Shown piece by piece: positions 1,799 to 35,066 of a stretch of 64,000 nt of DNA. The stretch spans positions 3,020 through 67,019 of the forward strand of contig JANNAN010000017.1 of assembly GCA_031384385.1 (NCBI GenBank), read 5' to 3'. A program made the position numbers and the translations under genes. The notes beneath the pieces are model-generated. The model saw nothing but the letters and a program-made list of their open reading frames with translations. It made no database searches and had not been told where the DNA came from. Numbering within the stretch: position 1 is the stretch's first letter; every line of letters starts with the position of its first letter. The DNA is from Candidatus Tayloriibacteriota bacterium. GTDB lineage: Bacteria > Patescibacteriota > Minisyncoccia > Phycocordibacterales > PALSA-1337.

Positions 1799-1885
1799 GG
1801 AGAGATGGGTGAGTGGTTTAAACCAGCGGTTTACTAAACCGCCGTTCCTTAATCGGAACCGCGAGTTCGAATCTCGCTCTCTCCG
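1799..1885 (+). tRNA. Type II (Ser-like) tRNA whose anticodon loop reads UUACUAA, giving anticodon ACU
   Basis: Acceptor GGAGAGA/TCTCTCC. D-arm GGT..ACC. Anticodon stem GCGGT/ACCGC. Long variable hairpin GTTCC-ttaatc-GGAAC. T-arm GCGAG-TTCGAATC-CTCGC. Discriminator G (the Ser identity element). The loop differs from the Ser-GCT loop (TTGCTAA) by one base. Confidence 0.65.
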
Positions 1886-1887
1886 CA

Positions 1888-1965
1888 AAAAACCAGAAAC
1901 CTCGGAATCGGCGAAAAACGGAGAAAGAATCGCAGAATGTGGAGGGCTAAGCAAGCACATATAGA
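1888..1965. repeat. GC-rich tRNA trailer, family B (gaatcggcgaaaaacggagaaagaatcgcagaatgtggagggc)
   Basis: About 80% identity over about 48 nt with the trailer after tRNA-Gln at 27546-27595. On the minus strand it encodes ..PPHSAILSPFFADSE.., similar to the tail of the serine recombinase. Confidence 0.5.
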
Positions 1966-27460: not shown

Positions 27461-27532
27461 TGCCAGATCGTCTAACGGTAGGACGTCGCTCTCTGAAAGC
27501 GAAAATTTTGGTTCGATTCCAAGTCTGGCAGC
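27461..27532 (+). tRNA. tRNA-Gln (CTG)
   Basis: Acceptor TGCCAGA/TCTGGCA (U1-A72 as in bacterial tRNA-Gln). Anticodon stem TCGCT/AGCGA with loop CTCTGAA. T-arm TTTGG-TTCGATT-CCAAG. Confidence 0.8.
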
Positions 27533-29085
27533 AATTTCGCAAAAATCGCAGAATCGCCGAAAAAAGGCGAAGGGGTCGCAGAATGAGGAGGGCGGGGCGG
27601 AATTCCCCCCTGAAACACCCCTTCCGCCCCGCCCGCTTCCTTGTTGGCGTTTTTGGGAATTTTCGTTACAAATGCAAAAGGAAAATGCGGAGAAAAAATG
27701 AGGGTGCGGTTGTGGACGAGTGGGTTCGAACCGACTTTTTCAAAGAATGATCGAATTTTCGTAGCATCAGTACTCTCTGCCAAAATAGTGGCTTGTTTAC
27801 AGTCGTTTAGGAAATTTATGATAGGTTCGAACCGATTGCTAGAAACTTTGCCGAAAGCAGTGATTTTGTCTTTCAAAACCTGCTTTTCGGTCACCAATTT
27901 ATTCTTTGTTTCTTGATACTCTTCAAGAGTTAGGGCATTGCCAAGATATGCTGACATAAGTTTTTCTAATTTAGCGTCAACGGCTAGTGCCTCACTATTT
28001 ACTTTCTGAATCTGATTTTTTGAGGAATCATCGTCTTTAGATCGATCTTTCTCTACTTCCGCAATAAGCCAGTCGGCCACTTCACTAGACAGTGATACTT
28101 TTCTGATCTCATCCTGGATGAGTGTCGTCATAGCTTCCTCACGGACATACTTTTGAGAGCATGGGCCTTTGCGTTTGGTGCAGCGTAAATAGTTATGACC
28201 TTTTTGTGTCTCAATAGTAAGGCAACAGCCACATTCAGCGCATTTGAACAGTCCGCGATAAACATATGGTTTCAAATCACCGTCATGTTGTGGTTTACTT
28301 TTTTTGGTCATGACTTCCTGGCATATATCAAAAATTTTCTTGGTGATAATCGGCTCATGCTTGCCTTCATAAAATTCACCATGAAAAAGTATGAGTCCAT
28401 GATAAAGATTATTTTTGAGTAGATACTGATAATTTGAAATGGAAAGCTCCTTGCCTTTGTGTCCAGTCAAGCCAAGTTCACCTATACTTTTGCGGAGGGC
28501 TGATAAAGTATAATTTCTGGTAGCATATGTTTCAAAAGCTTTCTTGATGAAAGGAGCTTTTTCAGGATCGACTACAATGAGTTTTGTTTTCTTGTCGTTA
28601 AGATATCCAATCGGCGCTTTCTGTGGCCAGATGCCGTTCTTCAATTTTTGTTTGTAACTCCTCTTAACATTTTCGGAAAGATTGTCTACATAATATTTCG
28701 ATTGAGAAAAAGAGATGGAAAGCATAAATTTTCCCTGCGGAGTTGCGTCAAACCAGAAAGTTGGAAATTTTAAATCAGTAATTACACCAGTATCAACCAT
28801 GTAAATGATTTTTCCACCATCAACCGAGTTACGAGCGAGCCTGTCGGGATGCCAAGCCAAAATCCCTGAAGCCTCGCCAGCTTCTATGCGCTCCAACATC
28901 TCCGCGAAAACAGGTCTACCGGGAGTTTTGGCAGTTTGCTTCTCGATAAATACATCTACAACCTCCAGTTGCTCTTTTTTGGCGAGCTCGCGTAGCTCGG
29001 AGAGCTGGTCGGCAAGACTTCGGACTTGTCGATCCTCGGTATCGGTAGATTTGCGGGTGTAAATAAAATATTTCTTGTCGCTCAT
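27472..29085 (-). CDS. Large serine recombinase (resolvase/invertase N-domain, recombinase domain, zinc ribbon). The ORF reads through the GC-rich trailer into tRNA-Gln.
   Basis: N-terminus YTRKSTDTEDRQVRSLADQ (catalytic Ser region). Cys cluster CAECGCC...CTKRKGPC. Size 537 aa. The last ~20 codons overlap tRNA-Gln on the opposite strand. Confidence 0.8.
   Translation of the reverse strand: MSDKKYFIYTRKSTDTEDRQVRSLADQLSELRELAKKEQLEVVDVFIEKQTAKTPGRPVFAEMLERIEAGEASGILAWHPDRLARNSVDGGKIIYMVDTGVITDLKFPTFWFDATPQGKFMLSISFSQSKYYVDNLSENVKRSYKQKLKNGIWPQKAPIGYLNDKKTKLIVVDPEKAPFIKKAFETYATRNYTLSALRKSIGELGLTGHKGKELSISNYQYLLKNNLYHGLILFHGEFYEGKHEPIITKKIFDICQEVMTKKSKPQHDGDLKPYVYRGLFKCAECGCCLTIETQKGHNYLRCTKRKGPCSQKYVREEAMTTLIQDEIRKVSLSSEVADWLIAEVEKDRSKDDDSSKNQIQKVNSEALAVDAKLEKLMSAYLGNALTLEEYQETKNKLVTEKQVLKDKITAFGKVSSNRFEPIINFLNDCKQATILAESTDATKIRSFFEKVGSNPLVHNRTLIFSPHFPFAFVTKIPKNANKEAGGAEGVFQGGIPPRPPHSATPSPFFGDSAIFAKLLPDLESNQNFRFQRATSYR
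27534..27650. repeat. GC-rich tRNA trailer, family C, with a perfect 12-bp inverted repeat (GGCGGGGCGGAA ... TTCCGCCCCGCC at 27590-27632)
   Basis: Shares gaatcgccgaaaaaaggcgaaggggtcgcagaatgaggagggc with trailer B (about 80% identity). TCGCAGAAT occurs twice. Hairpin with a 19-nt loop. Confidence 0.55.
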
Positions 29086-29240
29086 GGATGTATTTTACCA
29101 AATTTTTCAGAAAGCAAGAAATATTTTTTACATAAATCAGTGCATAAACAGTTAACAACTATACTTTCATTGAGAAGCGGTCGACTTTTGCTTCCCTCAC
29201 TGGACATTGTTCACCCTATCACATATCTGTATGTCGGATG

Positions 29241-29274
29241 CTTCCCACGGTTGCAATGAGTAACCGTGGGAAGC
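29241..29274. repeat. Perfect 12-bp inverted repeat hairpin within the GC-rich region upstream of the recombinase
   Basis: CTTCCCACGGTT-gcaatgagt-AACCGTGGGAAG. The surrounding 29100-29560 is about 50% GC with a further stem GAAGCGG-aagtgag-CCGCTTC. Confidence 0.6.
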
Positions 29275-29597
29275 GCGGGAGCCGTTCGGATATGCGTCTG
29301 GAGCGCCACAGACCTACTAGAAGCGGAAGTGAGCCGCTTCGAGTCACTGTAGCCTGTGATTTGTGATGTGTGATTGCGTTCAAAAATGAAAAGTAAAAGG
29401 AGGTGAGTACCCATCTGGTCCGCAACCGCACCCTCGTTTTTTCACCACGCTTGCCCTATGCCCTCGTCACGCACATTCCCGGAAAAATAAGGATTTATGC
29501 GGGCGGGTGATGGGGTTTGATTCTACTAAAGGAAAACGTAAATTATGTGTAAAGGCAGGACTTTTAAAATTGACTAAAACATAGTATTATTACCTGT

Positions 29598-32500
29598 ATG
29601 TTTGAAGGACCTCATATACCTAATGACGAATTGGAGAAAGATAAAGTTGAATCATCTGCATCAGATGCATTAGAGGCTCCTCTAGAAGATTGGAAAAATA
29701 GAGCATATTTTCGTATAAATCTCGGTGTTCATCGAGAAAGGATTGATCGAATAGTGGAACCTCTCAAAGAGACTCATCCGGAGTGGTTCAGATCTTTTAA
29801 AAATAAAACTGGGATGGGTGAGTATTTCTCCCCCGAGCTTGTTTCGATAGTTAGAGAAGAACTTGAAAAATATAAAAAGGCACCGGAAGGCTGGGAAGTC
29901 ATTAGTACTCTAGAGGAGTTAACTGGTAAATCAGGTGGTTTTATAAGTAAGACTATTGAACCATATAGAGAAACTCATCCCGAGTGGTTTAAAGATTATC
30001 TAAGTAAGAGGTCTAAGATTCTTGAACATTACGCACCTGAACTTATAACAATATTAAAAAAAGAATTTCAAAGTTATGAATATGCTCCTGAAGGATGGAA
30101 AACAAGAAATTCTGTGGCAAAGTCACTGAATGCTACAGATTTTATAGTTCAAAAAATTGTTAATCAGTTTGAACAAATTCATCCAGAGTTGGTAAAAGAT
30201 TACATGACAAAATCAGGTGTACTCACGCATTTTTCACCAGAATTAATCCTGATTATTGAAGAAGAACTGCTAAAAGAAGAAAAAGCACCAGAAGGGTGGG
30301 AAGTGATAAGTATGTTAGCTGAATTAACTGACAGAAGTCCTTTATTAATCAGAAGAACCATTGAACCATATAGAGAAACTCATCCCGAGTGGTTTAAGAA
30401 TTATAAGACTAGATCTGGTTTATTTGAACATTTTTCTCCTGAGTTAGTTGCGGTTATTAAAAATGAATTTTTAAAAGAAGAAAAACCACCAGAAGGGTGG
30501 ATGAATAGAAATGAATTGCATGATTCTTTGGGAATCAGTTATAAGAAACTTAATCGAATGGTAGCAACTCAGAAAGAAATTCATCCTGAGTGGTTTAAGT
30601 TCTTTAAGGGCAAGGCATTAGTTACGGAGTATGTATCCCCAGATGCTATTTTATTTTTTAAGGATATCGTAGTAAAAGAAGAGGAACCTCAAAAAGGTTG
30701 GATGAGTCCAGGGGAGTTAGGAGATTATTTGAAAGTTGCTTTTAAAACTATCAAAAAGGTAGCTGTAGAGCATAAAAAAAGTAATCCAGAGTGGTACAAA
30801 CTTTATAAATCAGATAATGCGAATATGACGGAGTACTATTCTCCCGAGTTGGTTATGATCCTGGAGGATAGATTTTTAAAGCCTCCACCACCTCTGGATT
30901 GGAAGACTATAAAATCATTTGCTGTTTCTAGAAATAGTGCCGTTAAGACAATTGAGAAACTTGTAGAATCGTATAGGGAGACAAATCCAGAATGGTTCAA
31001 GAATTATCGAACAAATAATGGTGTACACGAGCATATTTCTCCCGAACTGATTTCAGTAATAGAAAATTATTTTTCTAAGCAAAGCCCCCTTAAAGGATGG
31101 GAGGTTTTACAGTCATTGATTGTTTCCACGGGAAGATCGAATAAATTCATTGAGAAATTAATATTACCTTATAGAGAAACACACCCTGAATGGTTTAAGG
31201 AATTCAGAAGTGAAGATGGCAATTTGCGAAAATATTATTCTCCAGAATTAATTTCAATAATCAAGAATGAACTTTCAAATACTGAGTTTGTTCCAGAAGG
31301 ATGGGTGACTAGGAATTTCTTCTCCAAATCTAAGGGAGTAGATGTTGATATGATCGAGGACATAATAGCGCCGTATAAAGAAAAAAATCCAGAATGGTTT
31401 AGAAAGTTTGTATCAAAAAATGGTGGACAGAAGGTGGAGTATCTTTCACCGGAGCTAGTTTCCATTTTACAAAAAGAATTGGTAGATAATATAGCTCCAG
31501 AAGGTTGGAAGGTCTTGAGAGCCCTAAGATTTTCTATTGGTATTTCAGGATCTCCAATTAAGAAAATAGCCGAACCATATAGAGATTCTAATCCTGAATG
31601 GTTTAAAACTTTCAGAAGCGAAGATGGTAATTTACGCGAATATTTTTCTCCAGAATTAGTCTCGATTATAGAAACTGAACTATTAAAAGAAGGTGAGGCG
31701 CCAGAAGGATGGTTGAGAAATACTACTATAGCCAATTCACTTGAAGTAACAAAAGAAAAAACTAAGAAACTTGCAGATCAAAGTAGGGAAGCACATCCAG
31801 AATGGTTTAAAGATTTTAGGGGGAAAGAAGGTATATTCGAGTACTATTCACCCGAATTAATTTTGATTATTAAGAATTCTATTTTTATAGAAGAAAATGA
31901 GGCGCCTGGTGGCTGGGAGACCAATAAAGGTTTACAAAATAAAACGAATTTTTCTTACTACCTTCTCGAAAAAATTGAAGAACCTTACAGACTTACTCAT
32001 CCAGAATGGTTCAAAAACTTCAGAAGCAAGACAGGTGTGTATGAGCACCTTTCACCAGAACTGGTCTCAATTATTAAAGAAGAGGCTGAAAGACGACAAA
32101 GCTATGAGAGTGAAATTTTGAATAGAGAAAATTTCGATAAAAACCTTGTCGGATTTCTTAAAGGTGTAGACTCCTCAAAAGAAGGTATCGAATTCAAAGA
32201 CCTTATCAGTGTTTTCGGCTCGTCATCTGTTTTAGATATATTGTATGCAACGCACCCAGAATTCAAAGCAGTTCCTGTTGAACGTGTAAAATCTGTTATT
32301 GCTGAATATCTTGGAAATTACTTATTGTCGCCAGGTGCTTTTTCATTAGATTCGGTTAAAAATAATTTGTCATATCTTAAAGAAGAAAATATAAAGAATG
32401 GACTGGTTGAAGTGGTGAAAGATCATTGTCTGACGTATTTTTTAGAATATAAAAAGGCTAACCATGATAAAGATGATCAACAAATATTTACCGAATATTT

Positions 32501-35066
32501 TGCTCAGTTGGAAGATCAAACAAGTAGTTTTAATAATGCTGATCTTGATTCTGTGATCAAAGAGATAACTGAATACTATCAATCTATATTCAATCTAGAA
32601 AAGGGTGAACATCTCATTGAATCGTTAAACTCCGGAAGAAGCTTCCCGGATATTTATCAGAGTATCAATATAAAGGAAATTTCTGATAAGAAAAGATTGT
32701 TGATTGCCGATGAAATGGGTGTAGGTAAGAGTGCTTCAGCAATAATTGCAAAGGAATCTCTCGGCTCAAAATTGGCGCTAGTGGTTGTACCAAGTAATGT
32801 AGTAAATACATGGGAAAAATATCTGTCTGACACAGTCGGAGAAGATGCTAAAAAGATTGGATATTTCAAGAGTGGCGAAGCGCCTCGTGTTTTGGTTGTG
32901 AATGATATAGAAGAACTGAATAATATTGATCAAAATTTATACGATTATATTCTCATTTCTCATGAGAAACTTACTGGAAAATATACTGGAGCACTTGATG
33001 TCTTGGACTACGACATGCTCATTGTCGATGAAGTTCATAAGTTTAAGAATCTCAGTAGTGCAAAACGTCCAGAACAGCTCATTAGATTAGCTGAAAAGAT
33101 ACAAGGTGATGATAAATATCTTGCACTTCTATCGGGTACGCCAGTGCCAAATAAGATTGAGGATGTGGCATTACTCTTGAGACTCCTCCATCCAGATCGT
33201 TTCGAGGACCAAGATAATAAGCAAATTGTATCAAGTGTGCTCAATGGCAACCTTTCTGATATTCGAGCTTTGCTTGTGCCATATATGCAGAGAAAAGATC
33301 TGCGAGATCACATTGAGATGCCAAAACTTGATGAGGAAGTCATACCAGTTACACTTACTGGATCAGAGAAGGATGTATACGAAGTTTTGCTTGAAGAAGA
33401 TGAACTTACTCCAACTGAAAAAATGATTACCTTGCGTCGTTTCCTTATGAACCATGAGACACTGGATATTACACCAAATATACAAAGTAGTAAGGTTGAG
33501 ACCTTGAAAGGAAAGCTCACTGAAACTTTTGAATCAAAAGATAAGGTTGTTTTGTTTGTGAATGATTATGTGAAAGGTGTGATTGAAGGCGATAATTCAA
33601 TATTGTCTAATCTTGAATTACCAGAAGATGTTGAGATTAAGGTTGTCTACGGTGAAGTGTCTCAAGCCGAGAGAGTCTCTATTCAAGAAGAATTTAATAC
33701 TGAAAACGGTAAGAAAATATTATTGGTTGTTAGTGGTCAGACTGCTGGCGTCGGAGTTGATTATACTGGTGGAGAACACATATATTTCTATAATGAACCA
33801 TGGACAAAGGCGGACAGCGATCAACAAAAAGCTCGAGTATATAGACCTGGACTTAAACACGATATCCAATCAGAGACTCTGATTACAAAAGATACAATTG
33901 AGGAAGGTATACATCGATATGTTGAGTTGAAACACCAAGCAGTCAATAAGCTTCTGAATGGTATTCCAATTACAGAATTTGAAAAAGAACTATTGGAGAA
34001 GAGTGAACAATCAGAGGGCAATCTTGAAGTGAATCCAGAACTAGCTAACTATTATTTCTCATCTTTTGATAAGATGAATAGAATTTTTGCAGCGGTTAAA
34101 GAAATGGGTGAAGAAAATTTTTGGGATTTCATTGAGAAGCATGGCGCAGAATATGCTGATTGTTACTTTGAACTTGGTAATAGAAGCTATCAAGCCAATG
34201 CAAGTCGAGTCTGTGCCACATTGATTGATTCAATGATCAAAGCAGAAAAGTCTGATCCAAAAGATCTCAAAATTATCGATATTGCATCTGGTCCCGAGAT
34301 GCTTCGCCGTCACAGTAAAGAAGATGTTCAATCTGCTATTGTCAGTGCGGATATAAACATCAATCATTTCATCAATCGAGGCACGAAGGATGCGGTAGTC
34401 GCTGGCTTTACTGAATTACCATTCCCAGATAATAATTTTGATTATGCTAATTTTTCGCTCGCATTTCATTATAGTAAATTCTTACCAAGTAAAAATGAGT
34501 ATGAACGCGCAGAAGTATTAAAGGAAATTAATCGCGTTCTCAAAGTTGATGGCACAGCTGTTATTAATATGATTTATAGTCTTGATTTCAAGGACGTTGA
34601 TAAGTTTAAAAAGCTTGTTGGTTCTTTTGGTTTTGATGTTGTAGAAGGTTATTCCGGTGAAGTGGAATCTTCGGATAATTATAGATCAAGAGTTATTACA
34701 CTTAGAAAAAATAGTGATATAGAGCAATCAGCAGAAGAAGTGCTGAAAGATATGACCAGAGAAGAAATGGATGGTTTGAAGTTTGTTAGAACGACAGAAG
34801 GCCTCAAGGATTCAAGAAAGATTGTTTCTGATTTCAAACTCAATGGTAAAAGTTTTCATATTGATTTCAATGATTCAGATAAAATAGTCGTAAGAGAGGA
34901 AAAAGGTATTTTGGAGGACGGTAAAAGACTAAAAGATAAATATGGTTCAATCAAGGATATATCAAAGGAGGAGGTTGTGAATAATAATTTTGTCAGATTG
35001 TTGGTAGGGGAAAAGCATATTCTTTTCAAGAAGCTTTCAAAAGGAGGGGTGGTTTTGGTGAGATAG
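29598..35066 (+). CDS. Giant multidomain protein (1822 aa). It has an N-terminal array of 12 tandem ~68-aa repeats, an SNF2-family helicase/translocase, and a C-terminal class I SAM-dependent methyltransferase (Methyltransf_11-like).
   Basis: Repeats have the form W..L...IEPYRETHPEWFK.Y....G..EHYSPELISII..E...APEG. SNF2 motifs DEMGVGKS (I), LIVDEVHKFKN (II, DExH), LLSGTPVPNKIEDVALLLRLLHPDRF (III) and QQKARVYRPG (VI). MTase motifs IIDIASGPEML and LPFPDNNFDYANFSLAFHY. Confidence 0.8.
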   Translation: MFEGPHIPNDELEKDKVESSASDALEAPLEDWKNRAYFRINLGVHRERIDRIVEPLKETHPEWFRSFKNKTGMGEYFSPELVSIVREELEKYKKAPEGWEVISTLEELTGKSGGFISKTIEPYRETHPEWFKDYLSKRSKILEHYAPELITILKKEFQSYEYAPEGWKTRNSVAKSLNATDFIVQKIVNQFEQIHPELVKDYMTKSGVLTHFSPELILIIEEELLKEEKAPEGWEVISMLAELTDRSPLLIRRTIEPYRETHPEWFKNYKTRSGLFEHFSPELVAVIKNEFLKEEKPPEGWMNRNELHDSLGISYKKLNRMVATQKEIHPEWFKFFKGKALVTEYVSPDAILFFKDIVVKEEEPQKGWMSPGELGDYLKVAFKTIKKVAVEHKKSNPEWYKLYKSDNANMTEYYSPELVMILEDRFLKPPPPLDWKTIKSFAVSRNSAVKTIEKLVESYRETNPEWFKNYRTNNGVHEHISPELISVIENYFSKQSPLKGWEVLQSLIVSTGRSNKFIEKLILPYRETHPEWFKEFRSEDGNLRKYYSPELISIIKNELSNTEFVPEGWVTRNFFSKSKGVDVDMIEDIIAPYKEKNPEWFRKFVSKNGGQKVEYLSPELVSILQKELVDNIAPEGWKVLRALRFSIGISGSPIKKIAEPYRDSNPEWFKTFRSEDGNLREYFSPELVSIIETELLKEGEAPEGWLRNTTIANSLEVTKEKTKKLADQSREAHPEWFKDFRGKEGIFEYYSPELILIIKNSIFIEENEAPGGWETNKGLQNKTNFSYYLLEKIEEPYRLTHPEWFKNFRSKTGVYEHLSPELVSIIKEEAERRQSYESEILNRENFDKNLVGFLKGVDSSKEGIEFKDLISVFGSSSVLDILYATHPEFKAVPVERVKSVIAEYLGNYLLSPGAFSLDSVKNNLSYLKEENIKNGLVEVVKDHCLTYFLEYKKANHDKDDQQIFTEYFAQLEDQTSSFNNADLDSVIKEITEYYQSIFNLEKGEHLIESLNSGRSFPDIYQSINIKEISDKKRLLIADEMGVGKSASAIIAKESLGSKLALVVVPSNVVNTWEKYLSDTVGEDAKKIGYFKSGEAPRVLVVNDIEELNNIDQNLYDYILISHEKLTGKYTGALDVLDYDMLIVDEVHKFKNLSSAKRPEQLIRLAEKIQGDDKYLALLSGTPVPNKIEDVALLLRLLHPDRFEDQDNKQIVSSVLNGNLSDIRALLVPYMQRKDLRDHIEMPKLDEEVIPVTLTGSEKDVYEVLLEEDELTPTEKMITLRRFLMNHETLDITPNIQSSKVETLKGKLTETFESKDKVVLFVNDYVKGVIEGDNSILSNLELPEDVEIKVVYGEVSQAERVSIQEEFNTENGKKILLVVSGQTAGVGVDYTGGEHIYFYNEPWTKADSDQQKARVYRPGLKHDIQSETLITKDTIEEGIHRYVELKHQAVNKLLNGIPITEFEKELLEKSEQSEGNLEVNPELANYYFSSFDKMNRIFAAVKEMGEENFWDFIEKHGAEYADCYFELGNRSYQANASRVCATLIDSMIKAEKSDPKDLKIIDIASGPEMLRRHSKEDVQSAIVSADININHFINRGTKDAVVAGFTELPFPDNNFDYANFSLAFHYSKFLPSKNEYERAEVLKEINRVLKVDGTAVINMIYSLDFKDVDKFKKLVGSFGFDVVEGYSGEVESSDNYRSRVITLRKNSDIEQSAEEVLKDMTREEMDGLKFVRTTEGLKDSRKIVSDFKLNGKSFHIDFNDSDKIVVREEKGILEDGKRLKDKYGSIKDISKEEVVNNNFVRLLVGEKHILFKKLSKGGVVLVR
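29688..32136 (+). repeat. Twelve tandem ~204-bp coding repeats inside the giant gene. They are divergent at the nucleotide level.
   Basis: Periodic recurrence of HPEWF(K/R), YSPEL and APEGW every ~68 aa. Confidence 0.8.

Follow-up and report, generated by a model that had tools for sequence, protein, structure and literature searches.

A probable tRNA-junction relic downstream of tRNA-Ser(ACT) and a candidate family of small serine-recombinase elements in Patescibacteria

In the 64,000-nt stretch of Candidatus Tayloriibacteriota DNA analysed here (the window), the sequence that directly follows the tRNA-Ser(ACT) gene (ACU in RNA notation) is probably the non-functional relic of an attR-type junction, in which the tRNA 3' end was joined to the outer arm of an integrative element. 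This sequence, copy B (1887-1947, minus strand, read as ...SPPHSAILSPFFADSE...), represents a truncated and degenerate P half of an attachment site, and its counterpart in the window, copy C, lies behind tRNA-Gln(CTG) at the 3' end of the gene for a resident large serine recombinase (LSR). Taken alone, copy B is an ordinary molecular fossil; the element family behind it is the more interesting part.

The window is AT-rich (G+C content of 32.8%) and contains eight tRNA genes, only two of which are followed by sequence of the copy B/C type. These are tRNA-Ser(ACT) (1799-1886, plus strand), the putative integration target (B' half of attB) of a lost sister element, and tRNA-Gln(CTG) (27461-27532, plus strand), the target of the resident element, both annotated by ARAGORN and Rfam. 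The attR crossover core CAGCAATTTC overlaps the final bases of tRNA-Gln(CTG), and the 25.6 kb between copies B and C include a five-gene tRNA cluster (Met, Met, Asp, Thr, Thr). Copies B (1887-1947) and C (27533-27593) are identical at 45 of 61 positions in an ungapped alignment over the full 61 nt after the tRNA, and they share their direct orientation and their offset from the tRNA 3' end. A local alignment, likewise gapless and starting from offset 7 after both tRNA ends, yields 42 identities in 54 positions, and blastn inside the window pairs 1905-1947 with 27551-27593 at 36 of 43 positions (83.7%, E=0.006). These values confirm the alignment of sequences behind two tRNAs that the earlier note had reported. 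In addition, an nhmmer profile of tRNA-adjacent arms, which was built from 15 other genomes and from which the window was left out, matches 1877-1947 with E=5e-7 and keeps the tRNA-end register. The same register is shared by 13 of 14 arms from other genomes, with a shift of about 10 nt in L017. The minus-strand reading frames described for the two copies are present as well: ORF 1787-2008 (73 aa, spurious) holds ...SPPHSAILSPFFADSE... and continues into tRNA-Ser(ACT), and the recombinase ORF (27472-29085) holds ...PPHSATPSPFFGDSA... and runs antisense into tRNA-Gln. Finally, a search for further recombinase fragments, as suggested by the earlier note and run on the window by tblastn with homologous recombinases, finds three recombinase-like pieces only, namely the gene itself, 29406-29507 and 1898-1945, of which the last corresponds to residues 499-514 of P0003 (E=0.016).

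The resident LSR is encoded by an ORF of 537 aa (27472-29085, minus strand), whose last 20 or so codons are tRNA-Gln antisense. Its domain order, an N-terminal resolvase catalytic domain (Resolvase PF00239, 8.6e-21) followed by recombinase (PF07508, 1.5e-11) and zinc-ribbon (Zn_ribbon_recom PF13408, 3.4e-07) domains, is that of an LSR integrase, and its matches in the PDB are the SPbeta and A118 integrases. The protein is 92% identical to P0001, and its homologues number in the thousands, nearly all of them in Patescibacteria. The arm that holds copy C comprises roughly 210 nt and corresponds to the 3' end of the LSR gene together with the P half of attP. Within it, copy C constitutes the outer arm (27533-27589, minus strand), which consists of a putative P half-site and, where the recombinase ORF has its 3' end, a variable in-frame linker; no other part varies as much from locus to locus, but inside a given locus the two arms are nearly the same here. 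Further inward lie a G+C-rich arm hairpin (27590-27642; GGGCGGGGCGGAA ... TTCCGCCCCGCCC, inverted repeat I2), which encodes AGGAEG..IPPRPP, and the inner arm (27643-27769, minus strand), a genuinely coding part of the recombinase C-terminal region (KVGSNPLV..RTLIFSP..) that forms an inverted repeat with 29371-29523.

Upstream of the recombinase gene, a G+C-rich structured leader (29086-29370, minus strand) is conserved in L001, L003, L021 and L081, and the fold z-score of 29087-29600 is -3.7. The leader displays long perfect hairpins, and a similar piece adjoins the far-end tail copy in L006. For the leader and the arm hairpin, no Rfam family was detected at gathering thresholds, the only matches being meaningless miRNA ones (E of about 0.4-0.8). 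The leader is followed by an inverted spare arm, armU (29371-29523, plus strand), which is decayed and truncated: it is 75% complementary to 27612-27769, matches positions 1-99 only of the attP profile and contains a stop codon at 29508-29510. In intact relatives, the counterpart of armU runs on into a tail exon, FLxxVRTFFxENP; neither this exon (VRTFFAENP) nor the terminator region was found anywhere in the window by tblastn and the attP profile. The resident tRNA-Gln element is missing its tail exon, its attL and the outer half of the spare arm, and of its sites the window retains the attR side only; the element is presumably immobilised despite its intact ORF. Starting 75 nt past the decayed spare arm, an ORF of 1822 aa (29598-35066) has about 12 PEGW...HPEWFK repeats in its N-terminal part, and regions that resemble SNF2 helicases and methyltransferases come after them. 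This candidate cargo gene of the immobilised element is missing in the closest relative, L001.

The conservation of the arms at the level of protein or DNA was assessed through a codon-position test, in which the mean column entropy was determined at codon positions 1/2/3 across 15 loci. The gene body (0.53/0.32/1.10) and the inner arm (0.49/0.24/0.76) present the pattern of coding sequence. The hairpin (0.25/0.10/0.27) is near-invariant at every codon position and conserved at the nucleotide level, and in the outer arm, the part represented by copies B and C, both a coding signal and indels are absent (0.57/0.75/0.71). The outer-arm peptide was therefore rejected as a conserved protein feature, given its lack of codon-position periodicity. 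The earlier note had stated that copy B and the recombinase tail encode the same peptide; the shared peptide does exist, and the significance attached to it falls away, as it is a by-product of similarity between sequences that carry no codon-position signal. Judged from the sequences, the outer arm is conserved as DNA, as an att half-site and in-frame linker. The tail exon is conserved more than its flanks, which may reflect a role as P' half-site, and here peptide and DNA-site constraint give an ambiguous picture. In the tRNA-Ser clade, the equivalent arm hairpin occurs with compensatory variants. Its double changes (e.g. in L049 and L030) comprise GTCGGCGC/GCGCCGAC, GTCGGCAC/GTGCCGAC and GTCGCGCC/GGCGCGAC; they also alter the encoded peptide, from ALRAD to RLRRD. 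Since pairing is kept while the peptide changes, the apparent object of selection is a structure, of DNA or RNA, within the ORF.

Several features define what copy B represents. Positions 134-221 of the attP profile, which cover the outer arm and the junction, align to 1865-1947, with 1887-1947 as the relic part. In ungapped comparisons, copy B matches the arm of L021 at 47 of 61 positions, those of L001 and L002 at 46 and copy C at 45; as copy C does not match it better than the arms of other genomes do, copy B is assigned to a distinct sister element. Its homology stops at 1947, exactly where the arm hairpin GGGCGGGGCGGAA would begin, and no recombinase, hairpin, inner arm or tail relic was detected near copy B by tblastn or the arm and attP profiles. 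Copy B reads CAAAAAACCAG where arms from other genomes read CAATTTCGC or CAAATTCGC, and it is without the conserved arm-proximal motif ATTTCGC/AATTCGC, for which reason it is filed as a decayed relic rather than an intact attR site. On the tRNA side, the T-arm of tRNA-Ser(ACT) carries ATTCGAA at the offset typical for attR junctions. Additionally, tRNA-Ser(ACT) directly abuts LSR arms in L061 and L062, and the tail of P0109 also points to this tRNA. Over its first 18 nt, copy B bears little resemblance to the arm (10/19), and the native tRNA-Ser(ACT) trailer of L039 is about equally weakly alike (shuffle p of about 0.05 for the arm against 0.03 for the trailer), which leaves the exact junction ambiguous. 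Among about 160 loci, no other truncated solo arm was found, so that relics of this type are not common. An intact element at tRNA-Ser(ACT) was not recovered in a close relative, the sole extra contig of the region belonging to the same strain. The interpretation of copy B as a tRNA junction with the recombinase 3' end of a decayed sister element, as initially proposed, is supported by the profile match (E=5e-7) and by the 46-47 of 61 identities to arms elsewhere.

Alternative origins of copy B have to be weighed against this reading. An ectopic arm fragment might have been placed 3' of tRNA-Ser(ACT) by gene conversion or illegitimate recombination with an arm, and such an event would suit the poorly arm-like first 18 nt, which could be native trailer, with the 43-nt core alone being clearly homologous. 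However, random placement would not give the tRNA-end register that is common to copy B, copy C and 13 of 14 arms, and copy B is no nearer to copy C (45/61) than to the arms of other genomes (46-47/61). Considering also that L061 and L062 prove the use of tRNA-Ser(ACT) as a target by the family, this origin is unlikely. The direct orientation and common register of the two copies could equally indicate that copy B is a still-functional secondary site, through which the resident LSR could excise or rearrange the 25.6 kb between B and C. The region of the zinc-ribbon-domain (ZD) motif is indeed partly kept (TCGGAAT versus GCAGAAT), and the family is able to rearrange the DNA that lies between tRNA genes, as seen in L062 and L063. 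Nevertheless, a functional copy B is very unlikely, as both sites are of the attR type and LSRs do not normally pair like sites (PMC3783163), as the conserved arm-proximal ATTTCGC is missing from copy B, and as the intervening 25.6 kb contain five tRNA genes.

The remaining alternatives concern the nature of the shared sequence itself. That only two of the eight tRNAs in the window are followed by it makes it highly improbable that copies B and C are a host-encoded signal in tRNA 3' trailers, for processing or termination for example, which the recombinase ORF merely overlaps, even though both copies lie directly 3' of tRNAs in a region without coding constraint. Empty tRNA sites bear ordinary terminator hairpins instead, and in other genomes an inverted duplicate of the sequence is always present 5' of the LSR gene, joined to the tail exon, so that the sequence travels with the element. 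A chance match of purine-rich low-complexity sequence would be compatible with the A/G-rich composition and with a blastn E-value of only 0.006 inside the window, yet the probability of this explanation is close to nil: the profile from other genomes (E=5e-7) effectively refutes it, the register is identical and tblastn provides a separate match. The earlier note had named similarity confined to low-complexity sequence, without positional conservation relative to the tRNA end, as the weak point of its proposal; instead, the register is kept in 13 of 14 other arms. On sequence grounds, the similarity of B and C is real and beyond chance, and a decayed attR-type junction of a sister element stands as the preferred reading of copy B.

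The element family to which this junction is ascribed was surveyed in 80 related Patescibacteria genomic loci. The LSR ORF is convergent with a tRNA gene in about 60 of them, which, together with the attL/attP/attR triads described below, bears out the earlier proposal of repeated tRNA-targeted integration by one recombinase family. The adjoining tRNA is tRNA-Gln in the closest relatives and tRNA-Lys in two loci, and in a clade with 56-68% identity any tRNA-Ser, anticodon ACT included, is found beside the LSR. The C-termini of the homologues fall into two classes, antisense-tRNA peptides (..RDLDSNQ.., ..RRRRDSNPRG..) versus a conserved tail, FLxxVRTFFxENPxx. A regular-expression tally of 111 full-length proteins places at least 49 in the first class and at least 24 in the second, with 38 unclassified. 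A third tail (ALWDDIRTELGSKYSRF / AWDDVR..) follows the downstream arm and replaces the tRNA in L009 (7555-7605), P0024, P0035 and P0036; it may be a variant attP tail or reflect another target.

Inverted arms of at least 80 nt, and mostly of 120-210 nt, flank the LSR gene in 66 of the 80 loci. Within a locus, the median arm-to-arm identity is 98.5% and 25 pairs are identical; that the same positions differ strongly between loci indicates concerted evolution of the arms, and gene conversion or flipping would keep them identical. The downstream arm, whose neighbour is the tRNA, supplies the 3' end of the ORF, and the outer side of the upstream arm abuts the FLxxVRTFFxENP tail exon. Each element therefore includes a full inverted spare copy of arm, tail and terminator. 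Integrated elements measure 3.6-7 kb and are arranged in the order attL, tail (T, forward), cargo, tail (T, reversed), arm (A, reversed), leader, LSR gene (forward), arm (A, forward) and attR/tRNA. Their variable cargo includes methyltransferases, R-M-like genes and ORFs of unknown function; among the cargo ORFs listed, no phage genes were seen and no replication gene was evident. Both orientations of the recombinase cassette are represented: in isomer A (L001, L003, L021), the gene is fused to the tRNA-side arm, and in isomer B (L081, the contig of P0003, 89% identical) it is fused to arm and tail, and the second arm is found at the start of the contig, which is broken there. Around 35 of the 80 contigs stop 20-600 nt 5' of the recombinase start, at a perfect inverted arm, and the length and perfection of these arms account for the many metagenome-assembled contigs that break just upstream of the LSR gene. 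In L062 (5765-7569) and L063 (53-2044), a recombinase cassette lies between inverted tRNA-Ser genes, with arms extending into both, a layout that looks like a chromosomal inversion between an internal attP and a second tRNA attB. A phage origin of the family was rejected, as only one relative occurs among 2.9 million viral contigs. No description of this LSR element family was found in the searchable literature, and it is apparently a large, undescribed class of small mobile elements of Patescibacteria.

The logic of the attachment sites can be followed in 13 loci in which three junctions are comparable: host flank/tail (H/T, attL-like), arm/tail (A/T, attP-like) and arm/antisense tRNA (A/tRNA, attR-like). 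The attL-like junction is located 2-5 kb upstream on the strand of the gene, and the attP-like junction is inverted and lies just upstream of the gene. All three share a core of 4-10 nt only, which is GCGG for tRNA-Ser, TTTGTGC for tRNA-Lys and GAAATTGCTG for tRNA-Gln; the last, a 10-nt core, is common to the attL-like and attP-like sites of L081 and to the attR-like sites of L003 and the window. Beside attL, the host flank contains a terminator hairpin, which would be expected of the stretch that originally lay downstream of the tRNA, and in at least 17 loci the region 2-5 kb upstream includes lone T copies whose sequence begins with the crossover. On the tail side, a TTCGAA-like hexamer starts at offset 16; in the tRNA, where the T-arm provides it, the offset is 11, and this 5-bp difference is present in 23 of 30 loci. 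The same spacing has been reported for LSRs, with the ZD motif at half-site positions 16-24 in attP and 11-19 in attB (PMC3783163). In the attP configuration, the ORF runs about 16 codons past the crossover (FLxxVRTFFxENP), and in attR it runs into the tRNA antisense. The triads and the 5-bp shift of the motif indicate that the family consists of canonical LSRs, with a predicted attP at the arm/tail boundary and the tRNA 3' end as attB, and this predicted site mechanism can be extended to a sequence of events.

In the proposed scenario, a small integrative element of the resident LSR family once integrated at the 3' end of tRNA-Ser(ACU). Its attP would have been located inside the 3' end of the LSR gene, with the last 16 or so codons and the terminator (T) beyond the crossover, and attB would be the tRNA 3' end, in which the T-arm TTCGAA would serve as the zinc-ribbon-domain motif. 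Integration would fuse the gene body and arm (A) to the antisense tRNA, giving attR, and would shift T to the other end of the element, beside the old terminator of the tRNA, giving attL. A second, inverted copy of A and T just 5' of the LSR gene would turn the gene into a cassette between near-identical inverted arms of 120-210 nt, which may adopt both orientations. At copy B, a later deletion would have taken everything inward of the arm hairpin, and the divergence of its arm-proximal recombinase-binding bases suggests that the site is inert. As a general model, these observations could describe widespread, hitherto undescribed elements of Patescibacteria, in which an LSR recognises the universal tRNA T-arm as attB motif, attP resides in its own ORF, an inverted attP and 3'-end copy evolves in concert and the cassette flips between native and tRNA-antisense tails; this comprehensive model is put forward tentatively, as somewhat less likely than not.

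The genomic surroundings of copy B provide additional context. Copy B is part of an insertion island (412-2753) between tRNA-Ser(GCT) (323-411) and a SWIB gene, as defined by comparison with the empty site of L114, in which RecG (minus strand), tRNA-Ser(GCT), 110 nt and SWIB follow one another. The island contains trailer A, a truncated Bro-N gene, a methyltransferase (MTase) gene, tRNA-Ser(ACT), copy B and two small ORFs. A comparison of 323-2200 with related genomes, which the earlier note had suggested, was successful in part: the exact-protein look-up returned the same strain only (99.99%), and a SWIB-anchored metagenome scan, which yielded mostly non-syntenic loci, provided an empty site in L114 as well as occupied or related sites in L149 and L162. 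At the same place upstream of SWIB, L162 carries a full-length Bro-N gene, an MTase gene like that in the cargo of L035 and a DUF262-like gene, and L149 harbors a tail/terminator relic adjoining SWIB. The Bro-N/MTase islet is located 5' of tRNA-Ser(ACT) and hence did not belong to the cargo of the lost copy B element; other insertions at tRNA-Ser(GCT) are the probable source of this debris.

Trailer A (412-560) was considered as a third arm copy and rejected, since neither the arm nor the attP profile matches it and plain blastn returned nothing. It belongs to another G+C-rich trailer family of about 150 nt, which also occurs in L012 (about 2162-2320) and as the tRNA-Leu(TAG) trailer of L007, with alignment scores of 65 and 62 compared to at most 38 for shuffled sequences. 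In the window and in L012, trailer A ends with a partial copy of the tRNA 3' end (548-558 in the window, CGAATCCCTC), which suggests a separate tiny tRNA-targeting insertion. The tRNA-Ser(ACT) gene (A34) itself is found in diverse Patescibacteria, including L039 (7676-7763), L061 (5760-5849), L062 (7480-7569) and L065 (7819-7908). Its anticodon stem-loop (CAACGGTTTACTAAACCGTCG) is almost invariant, and its acceptor and variable arms exhibit compensatory changes. This tRNA usually adjoins tRNA-Ser(GCT), with which it is redundant; it is unusual for bacteria and is itself an LSR target.

With respect to the region, copy B indicates that the tRNA-Ser/SWIB locus was probably struck more than once by the same element family. 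More broadly, LSRs that read the T-arm of tRNA-Gln, tRNA-Lys and all tRNA-Ser could explain the gain of restriction-modification and other cargo genes at tRNA hot spots in streamlined Patescibacteria. If the model holds, chromosomal rearrangements from one tRNA gene to another, of the kind that L062 and L063 suggest, would also be driven by these elements. The combination of an attP within the ORF and an inverted spare copy would represent a compact natural system to study how directionality and site choice are wired in serine integrases, which are also used as genome-engineering tools. Should the state of the tail or its orientation control directionality or expression, this would constitute a new, self-contained regulatory logic for these enzymes.

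Known LSR integrases (A118/LI, SPbeta SprA, phiC31, Bxb1) share the set of resolvase, recombinase and zinc-ribbon domains with the family described here, as well as the short-core recombination of attP with attB into hybrid attL and attR sites and the distal motif that lies 5 bp nearer the centre in attB. Unlike these integrases, the present family targets tRNA 3' ends and T-arms, places attP inside the integrase ORF and maintains a second, inverted, attP-bearing copy of the 3' end of its gene; in comparison with phage LSR integrases, its elements comprise 3.6-7 kb and no phage genes were seen in them. Invertases of the Hin/Gin type differ by their small recombinase and short sites from the 537-aa LSR and the 120-210-nt repeats of this family. 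Tycheposons are small cargo elements at tRNA genes that build variable islands; most of them utilize tyrosine recombinases with partial tRNA duplication and a minority encode LSRs, and the text examined on them mentions neither an inverted spare 3' end nor an attP within the ORF (bioRxiv 10.1101/2020.12.28.424599).

The family resembles archaeal SSV1-type elements in that the crossover lies within the integrase coding sequence and a tRNA gene is the target. Targeting of tRNA 3' ends and T-arms is typical of tyrosine rather than serine integrases, and in SSV1-type integrases attP resides inside the int gene, so that insertion into a tRNA gene alters the sequence that encodes the integrase. The SSV1 enzyme Int, a tyrosine recombinase, is split into two non-functional parts on integration; here, in contrast, the enzyme is a serine recombinase, only its last 16 or so codons are swapped and a spare intact 3' end is available in inverted orientation. 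A further parallel exists with the integration-dependent immunity of the mycobacteriophages BPs and Brujita, in which attP lies within a gene and the tyrosine integrase acts in a system where a C-terminal degradation tag is removed. In both cases C-terminal residues are replaced on integration, and in the present family this tail swap, seen at the sequence level, involves a serine integrase. Two long, near-identical inverted repeats, of which A encloses the LSR gene and T the cargo, and the occurrence of both isomers are reminiscent of the yeast 2-micron plasmid, a eukaryotic replicon in which the tyrosine recombinase FLP acts on two long inverted repeats and flipping serves copy-number amplification. 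Unlike this plasmid, the family element is integrated, relies on a serine recombinase and has no replication gene recognised in the cargo listed. Among serine-integrase elements, the predicted tRNA T-arm targeting, the attP inside the ORF and the concertedly evolving inverted spare copy are the features that set this family apart as a new variant.
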